This document shows, piece after piece, positions 2,253 through 12,565 of a DNA stretch of 64,000 bases. The notes below the pieces were generated by a model. The model did not search any database and had not been told where the DNA came from. It worked only from the letters and a program-made list of their open reading frames with translations. The position numbers and the translations under genes were made by a program. The stretch's first letter is position 1, and the number at the start of each line of letters is the position of its first letter. The DNA is taken from NCBI GenBank assembly GCA_964407105.1, contig CAYOUG010000001.1:96227-160226 (forward strand), given 5' to 3'. Source of the DNA: an uncultured Candidatus Saccharibacteria bacterium. GTDB lineage: Bacteria > Patescibacteriota > Minisyncoccia > Phycocordibacterales > CALRHW01.

Positions 2253-4403
2253 ATGGATAAAAATTCAGCTTTAAAAGAAGAACTTCGTTTAAATGACTTT
2301 CAAAATAAAGCCCTAAAAAAGCTTGGAATTACCACCGTCGAAGATCTTTTATACTATTTCCCAGTTCGCTATGGTGATGTAGCTCAATCTCGAGAAATTT
2401 CAAGCTTAAAAAAAGATGATGTGGTGGCCATTTACGGAAAAGTAAGCGGTCTGAAAACCAAAAAAGCTTTCCATAAAAAAATAGCAATGTCAGAAGCAAC
2501 CATAGAAGACGAAACCGGTACCATTAAAGCCGTTTGGTTTCACCAACCATACATTGCAAAAATGATTCAAGATGGTGCGTTTGTAAAAGTAGAAGGAAAA
2601 GTGAGTGAGCGCAAAGAAGTGCTTTCTTTTATAAATCCAGAAATTGAAAGCATCTCAACACTTCCAACCGGAGTTGGTAATTCACTTTTTGGAAAGGAAG
2701 ATCATAGTTTTGCCTATCCTGTGTATGCTGAAAGTAAAGGTGTCACTTCACGTTGGTTTTATCATGCACTACAAAAAATTTTTAAATCGGGTGTACTTGA
2801 TACAATACAAGATCCTATTCCTACAAACATTTTGGAACACTACAATCTTCCCTCTTTAAAAACAGCTCTGATTTGGATTCATACACCAAAGAAAAAAGAA
2901 GACAGCGTTTCAGCGCGCAAACGTTTTGCTTTCGAAGAAATTTTTATCATTCAACTAGAAAAATTTAAAGAGAGAAAAGAATATGAAACATTGCAGTCTT
3001 TTGCGATAAAAGATGATAAGGGTGATGTTGATAAATTTATTAAACGTTTTCCTTTTAAAGCCACCGAGGCGCAAGAACAAGCGGTTGAACGTATCCTTGA
3101 GGATTTCAAAAAACCTCATCCAATGTCACGTCTTCTGGAGGGAGATGTTGGTTCAGGAAAAACAGCTGTTGCGGCAGCAACAGTCTTTGCTGTAACCACT
3201 ACCCCACCACAAAATCACGAATACGGAAATCTACAAACCGCATACATGGTTCCTACAGAAATTTTAGCTGAACAACATTTTGAATCTTTCATTCAATATT
3301 TTTCTTATCTCGGTATAAATATTGGCCTTATTACTTCAAGTGGGTGTAAAAAATTTCCTTCAAAAATAAATCCAACAAAAGCAACAGACATTTCTCGCAC
3401 TCAACTTTTAAAATGGGTTGCTGAAGGTACAATTCCGATTCTTGTAGGTACACACTCGCTTATTTCAAAAACCGTTAAGTTCAAAAATCTTGCGTATATC
3501 ATTATTGATGAACAACATCGTTTTGGTACAGCGCAACGTAAAGCATTGCGCAGAAAGGATAATGTTGTACCCCACCTACTTTCAATGACCGCAACGCCCA
3601 TCCCGCGCACGCTCGCCCTCACGGTGTATGGCGACCTTGATCTTACGCTCCTCGACCAGATGCCACACGGACGAAAACCAGTAATCACGGAAATCATCCT
3701 TCCACATAATCGCGATGCAGTGTATGAAAAAGTGCGAGCCGAAATTATCTCGGGCAGACAAGCTTATGTCATTTGCCCACGTATCTACGAGCCTGACCCC
3801 CAAAAAGAAACTGCTATCAACGCAAAATCAGTGACAGAAGAAGCACGCCGACTCAAAACGGTAGTATTCCCCGAGTACGAAATCGGCGTGCTTCACAGCA
3901 AAATGAAACCGACAGAAAAAGATAGAAGCATGCTTGATTTCAAAAATGGCAAAACACATATTCTTGTTGCTACATCAGTGATTGAGGTTGGAGTAAATGT
4001 GCCAAACGCGACCACTATTATTATCGAAGGTGCTGAACGTTTTGGTCTCGCCCAACTTCATCAACTTCGTGGACGCGTTATACGAAGCAATCATCAAGCA
4101 TACTGCTACGTTTTCGCTGACAGTAAAACAGAAAAAACTCTCGAACGACTAAGGGCACTCAAAACAGCAAAAAATGGTTTCGAGCTTGCCGAGTTTGATT
4201 TGGTCCAACGTGGCGCCGGTGAGCTTTACGGCAAAAAACAGTGGGGTATCTCCGACCTCGCCATGGAAGCAATAAAAAATATTAAAATGGTAGAAGCTGC
4301 ACGCCATGAAGCACAGCTTTTAATTGAAAAAGATAGAAATCTTTTGAATTATCCTATTCTTAAAAACAAAATTCTACAGTCAGAAAAAATTCACTTCGAA
4401 TAA
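2253..4403 (+). CDS. recG: ATP-dependent DNA helicase RecG
   Basis: It has an N-terminal wedge-like 'FPVRYGD', Walker A 'GDVGSGKTAVA', 'DEQHRFG', 'SMTATPIPRTLAL' and helicase C motifs 'QLRGRVIRS'. Confidence 0.9.
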   Translation: MDKNSALKEELRLNDFQNKALKKLGITTVEDLLYYFPVRYGDVAQSREISSLKKDDVVAIYGKVSGLKTKKAFHKKIAMSEATIEDETGTIKAVWFHQPYIAKMIQDGAFVKVEGKVSERKEVLSFINPEIESISTLPTGVGNSLFGKEDHSFAYPVYAESKGVTSRWFYHALQKIFKSGVLDTIQDPIPTNILEHYNLPSLKTALIWIHTPKKKEDSVSARKRFAFEEIFIIQLEKFKERKEYETLQSFAIKDDKGDVDKFIKRFPFKATEAQEQAVERILEDFKKPHPMSRLLEGDVGSGKTAVAAATVFAVTTTPPQNHEYGNLQTAYMVPTEILAEQHFESFIQYFSYLGINIGLITSSGCKKFPSKINPTKATDISRTQLLKWVAEGTIPILVGTHSLISKTVKFKNLAYIIIDEQHRFGTAQRKALRRKDNVVPHLLSMTATPIPRTLALTVYGDLDLTLLDQMPHGRKPVITEIILPHNRDAVYEKVRAEIISGRQAYVICPRIYEPDPQKETAINAKSVTEEARRLKTVVFPEYEIGVLHSKMKPTEKDRSMLDFKNGKTHILVATSVIEVGVNVPNATTIIIEGAERFGLAQLHQLRGRVIRSNHQAYCYVFADSKTEKTLERLRALKTAKNGFELAEFDLVQRGAGELYGKKQWGISDLAMEAIKNIKMVEAARHEAQLLIEKDRNLLNYPILKNKILQSEKIHFE

Positions 4404-7101: not shown

Positions 7102-7198
7102 ACTATATATTTGTAGATTATACTATAGATATATTTAATTGAAAAAGGACTACAATTAGGATATCATCAAGGAATTACGGTAATTCAAAAACCGCAAT

Positions 7199-7271
7199 GC
7201 ACGTGTAGCTCAGTTGGTAGAGCGGTCGTCTTATACACGACTGGTCCCAGGTTCGAGTCCTGGCACGTGCA
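7199..7271 (+). tRNA. tRNA with anticodon UAU (isoleucine, AUA-decoding); CCA not encoded
   Basis: I folded it by hand. The acceptor GCACGTG/CACGTGC has 7 bp, the D-stem is GCTC/GAGC, and the anticodon stem is GTCGT/ACGAC with loop CTTATAC. The variable region is 5 nt. The T-stem is CCAGG/CCTGG with loop TTCGAGT, and the discriminator is A. Confidence 0.75.
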
Positions 7272-7401
7272 CAATGAGCAGGGCGAATTGTGCACGTGAG
7301 CAAGTGCCCAATGGCACTTGCGAACAGGACGAGAAAGGCTTTTCGTTATCGAGAGAGCGTACTCGCTTTCGAGATCGAAAAGTACCCGCGGCGGTAGCCG
7401 A

Positions 7402-7421
7402 GAGTCCTGGCACGTGCACCA
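7402..7421 (+). repeat. second copy of the tRNA 3' end plus CCA: the T-loop 3' half, T-stem and acceptor 3' strand, 'GAGTCCTGGCACGTGCAC'
   Basis: There is an 18-nt identical direct repeat of tRNA positions 57-73 lying about 130 nt downstream of the tRNA. Only this copy is followed by CCA. The spacer is GC-rich and hairpin-rich. Confidence 0.6.
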
Positions 7422-7433
7422 TTAAAAAACAAT

Positions 7434-7499
7434 AAAAAAGACCTTCCTCACTAAAGCGCTTCGCTAACTCGTTCGGAAGGTCTTTTTTATTGTTTTTAT
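7434..7499. terminator. bidirectional rho-independent terminator between the tRNA and ftsH
   Basis: The arms AAGACCTTCC...GGAAGGTCTT are flanked by an A-run and a T-run. Confidence 0.65.
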
Positions 7500-7509
7500 T
7501 AATACCCAC

Positions 7510-9459
7510 TTAACTTGAGTGCTCTATATCCAGTTTGTTTTTTAGTGTAATTCCATTCGCAACAATAATCTGCTCGTATTCTGCACGTTCGATAGATTCG
7601 ACTTCAATAAGTCGCTTTGCAATAATATCAAGAAGTTTTCGATGTTTTGTAATAATTTCCTCGGTCTTCTGATACGCCTCTTTCATAATTTTTGAAACTT
7701 CGGCATCAATCATTGCGCTCACATGCTCTGAATATTCTTTATCTTCTACGCCACGACCAAAAAGTGGACGTCCACCAGAACCCTCAAGAGCAATGGGGCC
7801 AACTGTTTCAGACATTCCATATTTAGTCACCATATCTCGAGCAAGTGCCGTTGAAACCTGAAGGTCGTTTGAAGAACCAGTCGTAAAATCACCAAAAATA
7901 TTTTTCTCTACAACATATCCACCAAGTGACACCGCAATATCATCAAGAAATTCTTTTTTCGATTGCATTTTTTTGTCTTCAATCGGTAATTTGAGTGTGT
8001 AGCCAGCCGCACGTCCTCGAGAAATGATAGAAATTTTATGTACTGGATCAGCATACGGAAGAACTGAAGCAACGAGGGCATGACCCGCTTCATGATACGC
8101 AGTAATTTCTTTTTCTTTTTTAGAAAGAATATGACTACGACGCTCAGGACCAAGCATCACTTTTTCAATAGAACGAATAAGGTCGTACTGCGATACTGTT
8201 GTGCGATTTTCTCGCGCCGCCAAAATAGCACCTTCGTTCATAAGTGAATATAAATCTGCTCCAGAAAATCCTGGCGTACGCTCTGCGATCACAGACAAAT
8301 CCACATCTTCAGCAAAAGGTTTTTCTTTTGAATGAATTTCCAAAATTTCTTCACGATCTTTTCTGTCTGGAAAATCAAGAGTAACACGACGATCAAAACG
8401 GCCTGGACGCAAAAGTGCGGGATCGAGCACGTCTGGTCTGTTTGTAGCAGCCATTACAATCACTTTTTCGTTGGGCTCAAAACCGTCCATTTCTACAAGT
8501 ATTTGATTGAGTGTTTGTTCTCGCTCATCATTTCCCCCACCAGCACCAACCCCTCGCACACGTCCCACCGCATCTATTTCATCAACAAAAATAATTGCTG
8601 GAGCATTTTGTTTTGCTACCTTAAAAAGATCTCGTACACGCGAAGCTCCAACACCCACAAACATTTCCACAAACTCTGATCCCGAAATAGAGAAAAACGC
8701 AACACCAGCTTCACCTGCAACAGCACGCGCAAGGAGTGTCTTTCCGGTACCCGGAGCGCCCATGAGCAAAATACCTTTTGGAATACGCGCACCAATATCC
8801 AAAAACTTTTTTGGATTACGCAAAAAATCCACAATTTCAACAAGTTCTACTTTTGCTTCTTTTACACCAGCCACATCTTTAAATGTTACGCGTTGTTTTT
8901 TATCGTCAGGAGAAATCATGCGCGCTTTTGATTGACCAAAAGTAAAAGCTTGCATACCTGCACCCTTTACCTGTCTTGTCATAAACCACAAAAATCCAAG
9001 AATAAACAAAATCGGCAAAATAATTGGCGCGAGATTAAACGCCCAATACCAAAAACCACTCTGACTCTTTATTTCAATATTTACTCCAGCGAGTTTTTCT
9101 GGAGAAACACCATAGTTGGTGAGAGTTTCAGAAAGTGCAGCGTCATCTTCTTTTGAAGAAAATTTTTCTTCGCCACTCACATAAGTAATATCTAGAGAAC
9201 CGCTTTTTACAACAATACCAGATACCTTTCCAGCATTAATGTCTTTTGAAAGTTCGGTGAGAGAAATTGTGGTTGTATCTTTTTTTTGTCCAGAAAGTAA
9301 TCCGTAAAGACCAATTACCAAGAAAAAAATAAGAAAAGCGGTAAGAATGTGTCTTAAAATTCGTCCTCCACCCTCGGGAGCCGATGCATTCTTTTTTTGT
9401 GGTGCTTTTTTAAGCACAAATCGTACACGTTTTTTATCCTTTGAATTAAATAGTTTCAT
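7510..9459 (-). CDS. ftsH: ATP-dependent zinc metalloprotease FtsH
   Basis: It has an N-terminal TM region, Walker A '[19 protein letters not shown]', SRH '[19 protein letters not shown]' and the zinc motif 'HEAGHAL'. The start was chosen at MKLFNS. Confidence 0.95.
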
Positions 9460-9802: not shown

Positions 9803-10246
9803 ATGAGTTTAATCAGAAACAAAAAAGCTTCATTTGATTATGAAATCAGCGAAAAATTCACTGCCGGTATGGAGCTTTTTGGTTTTGAAGTAAAATCCTT
9901 GCGCGCCGGACAAGGTGCACTTGAAGGATCATACGTTACTGTGCGTGGTGGCGAAGCATATATTATCGGCATGCACATTCCCCCATTTCAACCCAAAAAT
10001 ACTCCAGATGATTATGATCCGCTACGCAATCGTCGACTTCTCCTAACAAAAAAAGAGCTTGAAACCCTCGCTGAAACAGAAAAAAAGAATGGTTTGACAA
10101 TAGTACCGATTTCAGTGTATAATAGCAAACGCAAGCTAAAAATAGAGCTTGGTATAGCACGCGGAAAAAAGAAATTTGATAAACGTGAAACGATTAAAAA
10201 ACGTGACACTGAGCGTGAGATACGACGAACATTGAAAAACATTTGA
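9803..10246 (+). CDS. smpB: SsrA-binding protein SmpB
   Basis: The protein reads 'KKASFDYEI...GFEVKSLRAG...YIIGMHIPPFQ' and has a basic C-terminal tail. Confidence 0.9.
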   Translation: MSLIRNKKASFDYEISEKFTAGMELFGFEVKSLRAGQGALEGSYVTVRGGEAYIIGMHIPPFQPKNTPDDYDPLRNRRLLLTKKELETLAETEKKNGLTIVPISVYNSKRKLKIELGIARGKKKFDKRETIKKRDTEREIRRTLKNI

Positions 10247-10255
10247 TTTACATAC

Positions 10256-10660
10256 GGGGATGATCGGCCTAGACAGGATATCAAATCATATATGTGCAAC
10301 GTAGAGCTTGAATACCTCTTAAAACTTTTCAAAATTCTAAGTGCAAACAACTTAGTTACAAAAGCAAAGTCAGTTGTCTCTCCATATTTTGGAGCAAAGG
10401 ATTTTACTTTCGCTTACGCAATAGCCTAAGCGACGTCACGTGAGCTGTTGTTCGATTGGCTCATTGTGGTGTTATATCATCGAAATAGAATGTGTGGTGT
10501 TTCGACACACATTTGAAATTAATTGAAAATAGGAGTGTGGCGGTTTTGTCTGTTTCATACGCCCCATTCCGAAATCGCCGTTAGGCGAAGAAACTTTCTA
10601 CACGTTGTAGACTCATATGTGATCATGTTCTGCACGGCGGTTCGATTCCGCCCATCTCCA
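10256..10660 (+). ncRNA. ssrA: tmRNA (ssrA); resume codon GCA at 10343; tag reading frame 10343..10429, encoding ANNLVTKAKSVVSPYFGAKDFTFAYAIA
   Basis: The 5' end is GGGGAUGAUCGGCCUAGACAGGAU. The 3' T-arm is GGCGG-UUCGAUU-CCGCC, and the acceptor 3' strand CAUCUCC plus A pairs with the 5' end, including the G3:U70 alanine identity pair. 'UAAGUGCAAACAAC' resembles the E. coli resume context, and the frame ends at UAA. The gene lies immediately downstream of smpB. Confidence 0.8.
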
Positions 10661-11264
10661 CTAGACACGAATTTTGAGCCTCTGGGAGGGTAAATACTCT
10701 TAGGGGTAGCGACAGAATAGCGGTTTCAAACCCGCTATTTTTGTTGTATGCCAACAGTTCCTGAAATACAAGCCTTAAAACCAGTCTTTTTTGGTGAATA
10801 TTACCTTTTTTCCATTTATCTAAAGGGTTCTTCAGAAAATCAAAAACAATATCTAATGCGGTTTCAATGTTTGGTTTGAGTGAATCAAAAGACACGATAG
10901 AACTTTTTAAAACCATTTCTTTTTCTGCGATCTCACTCAATCGTTTCTCATAAACAGTCACCACGTTATCATCCACAGCTCTTGTAAGCCTTCCTAGCAA
11001 TCGGTTACGCTCGATTTCGAGTTCCGCCAACTCATCAAAAATTTGTCTTTTCTTGGCGGCAATTCCTTTCTCTTTACTTTGCCAAACATCTTCAACAATT
11101 TTCTTTGTAAGACTTAATACCGTCTTGCTTGGTTTAATTCTCCATAAGATATCTAAAAACTTCTTTTCCATTACATCTCTATGAATACTTTTATTTCTCT
11201 GGCTACAGCCAGTTTGATTACATCGAAAGTAGGGCTTTTTATGCCTCAATAGCACTATAACCAA
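10623..11264 (-). pseudogene. large serine recombinase, C-terminal fragment only (zinc ribbon, coiled-coil and C-terminal subdomain); the catalytic resolvase domain is missing
   Basis: 'LLRHKKPYFRCNQTGCSQRNKSIHRDVMEKKFLDIL' resembles the LSR zinc-ribbon region. 'KRQIFDELAELEIERNRLLGRLTRA' is coiled-coil, and 'KRLVLRLVFQELLAY' resembles the LSR C-terminus. The frame has no upstream ATG or catalytic domain. Its last 13 codons overlap the tmRNA 3' end. Confidence 0.5.
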
Positions 11265-12169: not shown

Positions 12170-12565
12170 TTATAACCAACTATCGACTCCACCATGATGT
12201 GAACACGTTCCTTTTCTAGATTGACTAAAACTGTAAGTGTCGTCTCGACATCTAGCAGAAGCTCCTATTGGAATAGAATTATCTTGTGTATATGTTGGAG
12301 AATGCACCGAGTTACCGTAAGTATTGGTGTAGTAATTATCATTTGATAGCTCGGGGGTTTTTTGGGAAGTTGGTACTACTTTCTGAACGGTGTTTTGTGC
12401 ATTGACTTGGAACTGACTTGCAGGAGCTACTACTTGTGTCCCCTGAGTATATTGATTTGTGTTGTCACCCTGAAGACCACCCATACCCATCACGGCAACT
12501 GCTGCAACAGAAGCTAATATGTAGCGTTTCTTCTTATACCAAGGACGAGGGCTGTTTGGGTTCAT
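12170..12565 (-). CDS. membrane-anchored DUF3761-like protein
   Basis: It has an N-terminal TM anchor and the C-terminal 'CRDDTYSFSQSRKGTCSHHGGVDSWL', which matches the DUF3761 signature (CSHHGGV..W). Confidence 0.55.
   Translation of the reverse strand: MNPNSPRPWYKKKRYILASVAAVAVMGMGGLQGDNTNQYTQGTQVVAPASQFQVNAQNTVQKVVPTSQKTPELSNDNYYTNTYGNSVHSPTYTQDNSIPIGASARCRDDTYSFSQSRKGTCSHHGGVDSWL

Follow-up and report, generated by a model that had tools for sequence, protein, structure and literature searches.

Why an intact isoleucine transfer RNA (tRNA-Ile) gene should be followed, after 129 nucleotides (nt), by an exact duplicate of its own 3′ end is the question raised by positions 7199–7421 of the stretch analyzed here (64,000 nt of contig CAYOUG010000001.1, referred to as the window), a chromosomal segment from a member of the Patescibacteria (Paceibacteria/Taylorbacteria-like). 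The duplicate closes a small element that is inserted relative to orthologous loci, folds into a structure whose helices covary, carries arms re-matched to whichever gene it adjoins, and is a member of a hitherto undescribed family of small, structured elements located beside tRNA and transfer-messenger RNA (tmRNA) genes in bacteria of the candidate phyla radiation (CPR). The convergent neighbor of the tRNA gene, ftsH (7510–9459, minus strand; Pfam AAA and Peptidase_M41), served as the anchor for orthologous loci, which were fetched via FtsH from genomes (L001–L080) and metagenomes (L081–L112), with more loci added by exact-protein look-ups.

The tRNA-Ile(UAU) gene and its displaced 3′ end

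The gene at 7199–7271 (plus strand) is a canonical bacterial tRNA gene, as a preliminary description of the locus had proposed; ARAGORN called a tRNA-Ile with anticodon TAT at 7199–7272, and the Rfam model RF00005 scored 73.6 bits over 7199–7271, as compared to a gathering score of 29. C74 is located at 7272, and the anticodon loop reads CUUAUAC. The UAU anticodon, which had been singled out as an oddity, is the norm in this lineage, being present in 55 of the 55 tRNA-Ile genes that ARAGORN called in the window and 112 related loci. The direct repeat (X; GAGTCCTGGCACGTGCAC) is found at 7255–7272 (copy 1) and 7402–7419 (copy 2), both on the plus strand, with 18/18 nt identical and 147 nt from start to start. 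Copy 1 includes G57 of the T-loop, the 3′ strand of the T-stem, the 3′ strand of the acceptor stem, A73, and C74. The two copies are the only occurrences of GAGTCCTGGCACGTGCAC with three or fewer mismatches in 64 kb, while 0 were expected (none in 100 shuffles); the duplication claimed in the preliminary description, which exceeds chance, was thus confirmed.

Copy 1 is followed by AAT and copy 2 by CAT, so that only copy 2 reads ...GCACCA, with CA at 7420–7421 completing ...ACCA. The earlier statement that copy 2 carries the only encoded CCA is accurate for the window, and it does not hold as a feature of the family; CCA is absent after copy 2 in three homologous elements described below (L086, L007, and L003), and in another locus (L106) it follows copy 1. 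The CCA encoded at copy 2 of the window is incidental.

An intact regenerated gene and, in the same orientation, a displaced 3′ fragment identical to it from the loop to the 3′ end of the gene make up the arrangement that characterizes integration in tRNA and tmRNA genes, where the target is regenerated and the displaced fragment extends from the T-loop to the 3′ end (the Islander concept, PMC4383910); the attP of phage Ms6, for example, lies in the T-loop of tRNA-Ala (PMC1762012). The same pattern of regenerated gene and displaced fragment was also observed in L086, L007, L003, L106, and L032. A tyrosine integrase with cargo was not found between the repeats of the window, which are separated by 129 nt, and the only open reading frames (ORFs) overlapping the repeat interval (7214–7435 and 7231–7509) are spurious.

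Seven relatives, with FtsH proteins 79–86% identical to that of the window, are free of the element (L081, L178, L180, L303, L305/306, L307/308, and L309). Their tRNA genes have the same acceptor stem as the window, with at most single-base differences, and a covariance model of the element (see below) gave no match in any of the seven. In L305, the tRNA and the promoter region upstream of it can be aligned to those of the window, and GCACC leads directly into the A-run and terminator, as it does at copy 2; the terminator equivalent to that at 7425–7497 of the window is located immediately 3′ of the L305 tRNA. Because the seven relatives share the tRNA without the spacer, the window spacer is an insertion, in agreement with the earlier proposal, and on sequence comparison the window reads as an ancestral A-X-C arrangement with a 147-bp insertion. 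This insertion can be placed at 7273–7419 or, equally, at 7255–7401, as X-B and B-X yield the same sequence; since the copies are identical, which of them is the ancestral one is undecidable.

A folded element with arms matched to the adjacent gene

The segment 7290–7419 was predicted to fold into one closed multi-helix structure (−68.6 kcal/mol, z-score = −5.95), all parts of which are given here for the plus strand. The outer helix, P1, has as its 5′ strand 7290–7298 (GTGCACGTG / GUGCACGUG), which exactly complements the last 9 nt of the repeat and is thus antisense to the acceptor 3′ strand, A73, and C74, as supported by folds and covariation; its 3′ strand is 7411–7419. An unpaired A and the hairpin P2 follow (7299–7321); P2 itself is a 9-bp hairpin, GCAAGTGCC-CAAT-GGCACTTGC, at 7300–7321, and it interrupts the antisense copy exactly at the junction between T-stem and acceptor stem (65|66). 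The 5′ strand of P3, CAGGAC (7325–7330), is antisense to the 3′ strand of the T-stem along with G59 and U60, and pairs with 7404–7409. Directly after it come a conserved GAGAAA (7331–7336), the long hairpin P4 (7338–7383), which has a symmetric GA/GA internal loop (7351–7352 and 7371–7372) that is identical in L086 and L007, and the small hairpin P5 (7389–7400), which has a GGC-GGTA-GCC core and is preceded by GUAC; homologues present (U)GUAC(A/U)G followed by NNCUGUAAGNN at this position. The earlier description of the spacer as GC-rich and rich in hairpins was accurate, as its G+C content is 55% (vs. ~39% for the window), its fold has the z-score given above, and the hairpin that had been quoted is the P2 at 7300–7321.

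Since the repeat pairs with both 7290–7298 and 7325–7330, copy 2 represents one strand of the closed structure. In the predicted fold, P1 and P3 form a 12-bp acceptor/T-stem stack like that of the neighboring tRNA, and P2 exits where the body of the tRNA would. Despite this stack geometry, 7290–7421 does not qualify as a tRNA-like structure, having no T-loop and presenting A73 and C74 as paired nucleotides, and the Rfam tRNA and tmRNA models gave no match to it. The 17 positions between copy 1 and P1 (AATGAGCAGGGCGAATT; 7273–7289, plus strand) have ends that lengthen a 12-bp alternative hairpin (7264–7275 with 7287–7298); in the homologues L086, L007, L101, and L016, a palindromic terminator occupies the corresponding position.

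The minimum-energy fold of 7199–7424 is a swapped conformer (−110.2 kcal/mol in the nearest-neighbor model, as compared to −96.8 kcal/mol for the cloverleaf plus the closed element), in which the 5′ acceptor strand of the tRNA pairs with copy 2 and the acceptor strand of copy 1 pairs with the antisense arm. This conformer, together with the presence of an encoded CCA at copy 2 only, would fit an interrupted tRNA, in which the 5′ part pairs with copy 2 and ~147 nt of intervening sequence are removed or tolerated; extra structured sequence at the T-loop region, in a phylum rich in introns, is also reminiscent of tRNA and tmRNA introns. A survey of tRNA introns in Patescibacteria reports anticodon-loop introns of group I, and searching its text gave no mention of the T-loop (PMC13011429); a group I intron in the T-loop of tmRNA is reported in Williams 2002 (cited in PMC13011429). 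Unlike these introns, the element lies outside a complete copy of the gene, is too small, lacks the core and boundaries of group I introns, and is flanked by a perfect duplication. Moreover, copy 1 already completes a normal tRNA, Rfam yielded no group I or group II match even at E ≤ 10, and the homologues have a terminator before the element and no CCA after copy 2. An interrupted tRNA is thus scarcely credible, and the earlier suggestion of an intervening sequence in the T-loop found no support. Introns of groups I and II as such were rejected, given the lack of an Rfam match and, for group I, a boundary rule (a U at the 5′ splice site, with the intron ending in G) that is impossible here because, in a perfect repeat, the last base of the exon is also the last base of the intron. 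No 3-4-3 bulge-helix-bulge motif was visible in the predicted folds, to which no dedicated search was applied.

Homologous elements were identified beside tRNA and tmRNA genes of other Patescibacteria. The L086 element is located 3′ of a tRNA-Ile with acceptor stem GCACGCG and T-stem GTAGG/CCTAC and includes P1 (GUGCACGCG), a P2 with the same base as in the window (GCAAG...CUUGC), P3 (GGUAGG), GAGAAA, a P4 with the GA/GA loop, and P5; its repeat is 15 nt long. The L007 element directly follows a tmRNA gene, with the tmRNA end (TTCGACTCCCAGCATCTCCAC) repeated over 21 nt and its exact complement split by P2, and the L003 element follows a tRNA-Ser(GCU) gene. All three share P2, GAGAAA, P4, and P5, while the arms of P1 and P3 match, in each case, the neighboring gene. 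The z-scores for the window, L086, L007, and L003 were −5.95, −5.97, −11.85, and −3.52, respectively, and in all four full copies the plus strand was more stable than the minus strand, by 2–8 kcal/mol.

A covariance model for which the window, L086, and L007 served as input identified L003, which had no part in model building, with 65 bits (E ~1e-13). Across 1.17 Mb of related loci, every model match with E < 0.01 was located 3′ of a called tRNA or tmRNA gene, except for L101 210–282, a P4–P5 fragment amid sequence resembling a tmRNA 3′ end, where neither ARAGORN nor Rfam called a tmRNA. A purely structural descriptor recovered the same loci and none in shuffled sequence. In the alignment used to assess covariation, which was fitted to the model and includes weak matches, 96% of cells were paired and 20 of the 28 pairs had changed on both sides; none of 500 shuffles reached the observed values, and slid controls were 32–50% paired. 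P2, which is not derived from the tRNA, was 100% paired, with compensatory changes in 7 of its 9 pairs.

The general layout of the elements, which occur in Paceibacteria-type CPR bacteria and are ~130–150 nt in length, consists of the gene end X (T-loop to C74), a spacer or terminator, the antisense X′, internal hairpins, and a second X, with repeat lengths of 15, 18, 19, 21, and 36 nt. In the subfamily that includes the window, X′ is split at 65|66 by P2, and the interior consists of GAGAAA, P4, GUAC, and P5. The same layout with unrelated hairpins was found at a tRNA-Ile (L106), a tRNA-Lys (L032), and a tRNA-Ser gene (L021), indicating that the architecture is more general than the window subfamily. 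Database searches identified nothing comparable; when eight related loci and the window were compared to Rfam 15 at the gathering score, only tRNA and tmRNA were returned, and relaxing the search of the region to E ≤ 10 again gave only tRNA and tmRNA, with weak matches falling on the terminator. BLAST of the element against phage and plasmid collections gave no match, and pattern scans of IMG/VR (for P2 and for GUAC-P5) gave only chance matches, without hairpin or tRNA context. Among the exact-protein look-ups, SmpB led only to a 1.9-kb contig, and that of the 100%-identical FtsH (P0001) led to no record.

These homologues bear on the proposal, made in the preliminary description, that the repeat represents an att-core duplication. 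The spacer and one repeat copy are indeed inserted at the tRNA 3′ end, with the repeat spanning T-loop to C74 and the spacer absent in relatives, and recombination in this group has a hot spot at the tRNA-Ile(UAU) gene (displaced halves in L011, L021, L096/L098, L107, and L016). A passive scar, in which an integrase-borne island or prophage at the T-loop lost its interior and left attL, attR, and ~130 nt of functionless arms, is nevertheless improbable, as the element is conserved, covarying, and recurrent; independent deletions would not yield the same covarying P2, P4, and P5 beside different genes of different genomes, a perfect antisense copy of the core would be unexpected in att arms, and no version bearing an integrase was seen.

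The antisense arm complements the 3′ strand of the gene and is not copied from the 5′ acceptor strand. In L007, it presents an A-U pair where the tmRNA has G3.U70, with A73 and C74 also paired, and in L007, L016, L101, L086, and L106 it runs on into the complement of the genomic trailer; the gene end, the terminator, and the antisense arm therefore form one long palindrome. These three features (A-U for G.U, pairing of A73 and C74, and complementarity to the trailer) led us to reject a degenerate tandem tRNA whose arm would be a copy of the 5′ acceptor strand. We likewise rejected a second tRNA-like gene, convergent and encoded on the minus strand, as the position of the branch fits a tRNA on the plus strand only and the plus strand is the more stable one in 4/4 copies. 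The palindrome in these five loci, along with the variable repeat length (15–36 nt), could also result from template switching during replication at a palindromic terminator, a quasi-palindrome being extended or corrected, combined with local duplication, with neither function nor mobility. That origin seems highly improbable to us, given the homologous P2, GAGAAA, and P5 across different genes and the 65-bit match to a model built from other loci; shared descent of the internal hairpins across targets is largely established. In the tmRNA-linked element of L016 (2740–2776, minus strand), the P1 arm fits the acceptor of the local tmRNA and the P3 arm (GGTAGGACTTGAAC) fits a different T-arm (GTTCAAGTCCTACC), reflecting either an element from another lineage or a later change in the tmRNA.

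Mobile element or resident RNA

The repeat spanning loop to 3′ end, the absence of the insert in relatives, its occurrence at tRNA as well as tmRNA genes, and the accumulation of fragments favor an integrative element, and we tentatively prefer to read the locus as a protein-less, non-autonomous integrative mini-element at the T-loop/3′-end site, co-transcribed with the tRNA as a minihelix mimic. A recombinase supplied in trans would move the element to this site by site-specific recombination, and integration would leave a regenerated tRNA and a displaced 3′ fragment. Transcription would then proceed from a promoter-like site (TTGAAA-17-TATCAT; 7139–7167, plus strand) located ~30 nt upstream of the tRNA and identified by a consensus scan with 10/12 matches, through the tRNA and the element, to a bidirectional terminator with 23-bp perfect arms, an A-run, and a T-run (7425–7497), an inverted repeat common to the convergent ftsH. 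Because the same consensus scan identified no promoter-like site within the element, the window tRNA and element are probably one transcription unit. The element RNA would fold closed, with P1 and P3 mimicking the coaxial acceptor/T-stem stack of the neighboring tRNA, P2 emerging at the position of the tRNA body, and P4 and P5 standing in for the T-loop; processing by ribonuclease (RNase) P, RNase Z, or the CCA-adding enzyme may follow.

A number of observations weigh against a mobile mini-element of this kind. No integrase or other ORF is present in or next to the element, whose neighbors encode a peptidoglycan-binding protein and FtsH, and no full-length, gene-carrying relative was found among the ftsH-fetched loci; as every locus was fetched through ftsH, the sample is biased and covers only genes near ftsH. 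Near-identical strains provided no pair of empty and filled sites, with the one same-species locus (L177) representing a deletion and not an empty site. The classic integrase model leaves the perfect antisense copy of the target unexplained and gives no account of how arms come to match tRNA-Ile, tRNA-Ser, and tmRNA over 15–21 nt untemplated; none of the models we considered accounts for the step by which arms are re-matched to such different targets. The terminator between gene and element in four homologues indicates that co-transcription is not general, and the conserved unpaired nucleotides and the plus-strand bias fit a resident functional RNA equally well.

Such a resident RNA would be a tRNA-like small RNA (sRNA) gene that borrows the acceptor and T-stem of its neighbor for maturation by RNase P, 3′ trimming, and CCA addition, acting as a minihelix mimic (e.g., a decoy, sponge, or primer) whose arms are kept matched by concerted evolution. 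Helices not derived from the tRNA (P2 and P5) covary, conservation extends to several unpaired motifs (the A that follows P1, GAGAAA, the GA/GA loop, GUAC, and a UGUAA loop), P2 sits at the exact 65|66 junction as a real tRNA body would, the plus strand is the more stable in 4/4 copies, and the window element probably lies inside the tRNA transcription unit, all of which are in line with an sRNA gene. The distribution of the element is sporadic, however, as it is missing from seven close relatives and partly deleted in the same-species locus L177, and the same internal hairpins occur beside three types of genes. Mimicry of the type used in aminoacylation is also unlikely, because P1 pairs A73 and C74 and L007 has A-U for G3.U70; in addition, there is no T-loop, and a terminator precedes the element in L086, L007, L101, and L016. 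We regard a resident sRNA gene as the main rival of the mini-element, though a less likely one.

A further, unlikely proposal is that the element is a mobile RNA or single-stranded DNA hairpin that bears a guide, or, alternatively, that it represents a new class of tRNA-minihelix-mimic noncoding RNA matured by the tRNA-processing machinery. As a guide-bearing unit, the ~130-nt hairpin would carry an antisense guide to the final 16–22 nt of a tRNA-like gene, with a protein-binding hairpin splitting the guide; pairing would home the unit to the T-loop/3′ end of tRNA, tRNA-like, and tmRNA genes, or recombine it into this site, and the arms would be re-templated for each target. We also considered and rejected guides with hairpin ends of the IS200/IS605 type, duplication resembling that of casposons or CRISPR, and reverse transcription primed by tRNA, as none fits all features; the misfits include two dissimilar hairpins, the variable repeat length, and an arm that follows the genomic trailer and not the mature CCA.

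Like islands integrated by tyrosine integrases, the element targets the 3′ part of tRNA and tmRNA genes, is associated with a regenerated gene and a displaced fragment, is absent in relatives, and leaves decayed fragments that accumulate at the same gene; unlike these islands, it is a 147-bp insert without an integrase or ORF, is folded, and carries a perfect antisense copy of the target, with arms re-matched to three gene types. Folded single-strand recombination sites, such as integron attC sites and the CTX-phi attP(+) hairpin used by XerCD, may offer a parallel at the level of hairpin architecture, with a stem that rebuilds the target duplex, a structure conserved over the sequence of the stem, a branch or extrahelical feature in the stem, a variable terminal structure, and, as in Xer-exploiting elements, the lack of an own recombinase. 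Unlike these sites, the element has no apparent dif-like or attC core motif, and its stem is the end of a tRNA gene; a single-stranded intermediate would be pure conjecture.

A 7-bp acceptor-type helix stacked on a 5–6-bp T-stem-type helix is also seen in the tRNA-like domain of tmRNA, in viral 3′ tRNA-like structures, and in minihelices, with which the element further shares a continuous 3′ strand, a branch at the position of the tRNA body, and, in the window, a 3′ end reading ACCA. It differs from these in having P4 and P5 instead of a T-loop, in the pairing of A73 and C74, in the loss of G3.U70 in the tmRNA-linked copy, and in a CCA that is not conserved. With miniature inverted-repeat transposable elements (MITEs) and REPIN-type repeats, it has in common that it is small, protein-less, hairpin-forming, intergenic, sporadic, and probably dependent on an enzyme acting in trans. 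Unlike in MITEs, the terminal inverted arms correspond to the local target and are not constant, the duplication is long and variable (15–36 nt), and, among the ftsH-fetched loci, the 3′ ends of tRNA-like genes were the only sites at which the element was observed; with arms that vary by host gene and a repeat of no fixed length, the element is not a MITE or transposon of the usual type.

What is new here is the combination of a 147-bp insert without protein, a conserved folded module, and a perfect antisense copy of the target that changes with the target. CPR genomes, which are tiny, are commonly portrayed as containing little mobile DNA other than group I introns. If mobile, the element would be smaller than any other known occupant of the classic integration site in tRNA and tmRNA genes and would raise the question of how both of its arms are re-templated; as an RNA gene, it would represent a new class of tRNA mimics. 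In either case, such elements yield duplicates of tRNA 3′ ends, alternative folds of the pre-tRNA, and apparently split genes, and can thus lead to errors when tRNA genes and genomic islands are annotated in metagenome-assembled genomes.

Genomic setting, decayed copies, and a second module

The genes around the element are arranged in the order recG, a gene encoding a peptidoglycan-binding surface protein, the tRNA gene, ftsH, smpB, and the tmRNA gene. smpB (9803–10246) is located just upstream of the 406-nt tmRNA gene (10256–10661), which encodes a long tag peptide (ANNLVTKAKSVVSPYFGAKDFTFAYAIA); the window tmRNA gene is not accompanied by an element, its 3′ end (CATCTCCAC) being followed by TAGACACG. 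Linkage of tRNA-Ile(UAU) to ftsH, in either orientation, extends across Paceibacteria-like CPR bacteria (L001–L112, L177–L182, and L303–L309), and all tRNA-Ile genes called at these loci had the UAU anticodon. In many other bacteria, tilS is part of the ftsH operon, and the linkage of ftsH with tRNA-Ile may merit attention.

Partial or decayed copies of the element follow the tRNA-Ile gene in L101, L111, and L016, as well as the tmRNA gene in L016; L101 and L016 lack an intact second copy of the repeat. In L177 (Logan DRR274965), which belongs to the same species as the window (FtsH 99% identical), 139 nt corresponding to window positions 7311–7449 are missing; this locus retains the tRNA from position 8 onward and the spacer, together with the antisense arm and one half of P2, and its 5′ flank differs from that of the window. 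Upstream of tRNA position 8 in L177, the acceptor 5′ strand reads CCATCTG, which allows 5/7 pairs, and is preceded by the end of an ORF; this 78-aa ORF fragment had no informative Pfam match. L177 may thus be either a displaced copy of the tRNA beside another insertion or an assembly chimera. L003 contains a partial second tandem unit, with an exact 25-nt repeat (GAAGCGAGTACGATGCGAAGACTAT) at 12470–12494 and 12538–12562, resulting from either tandem accretion or unequal crossing-over. The deletion in L177 and the tandem unit in L003 suggest that the element is dispensable, accreting DNA, in keeping with a selfish insert.

Displaced 3′ halves of tRNA-Ile were observed in L011, L021, L096/L098, L107 (as compared to L108), and L016 (11597–11640), 17–60 nt after a complete tRNA-Ile(UAU) gene. 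The displaced half belongs to a different tRNA-Ile allele, starts just after the anticodon, and has another acceptor sequence. L107 and L108 have a common upstream flank and differ in their whole tRNAs, and loci of this type look like replacements of the whole gene in which the old 3′ half was retained; in L107 (~2340–2460), the displaced half is broken by ~115 nt of unrelated sequence between the 5′ strand of the T-stem and the T-loop. In L024 (~7925–8020), a run of N (masked sequence) directly follows the tRNA-Ile gene, flanked by fragments of another tRNA.

A second recurrent module was identified downstream of tRNA-Ile and tRNA-Lys genes, consisting of GCCGAGG-N-GGGGUCGCGA, a hairpin, and UYGUGAC, with no match in Rfam. 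It is found in L106 (~3150–3300, minus strand), L089 (3790–3880), L018, L111 (~2560–2650), and L032 (12470–12600, minus strand); in L106 and L032, this module is enclosed by antisense and sense copies of the tRNA end, with z-scores of −8.7 and −6.2, respectively.

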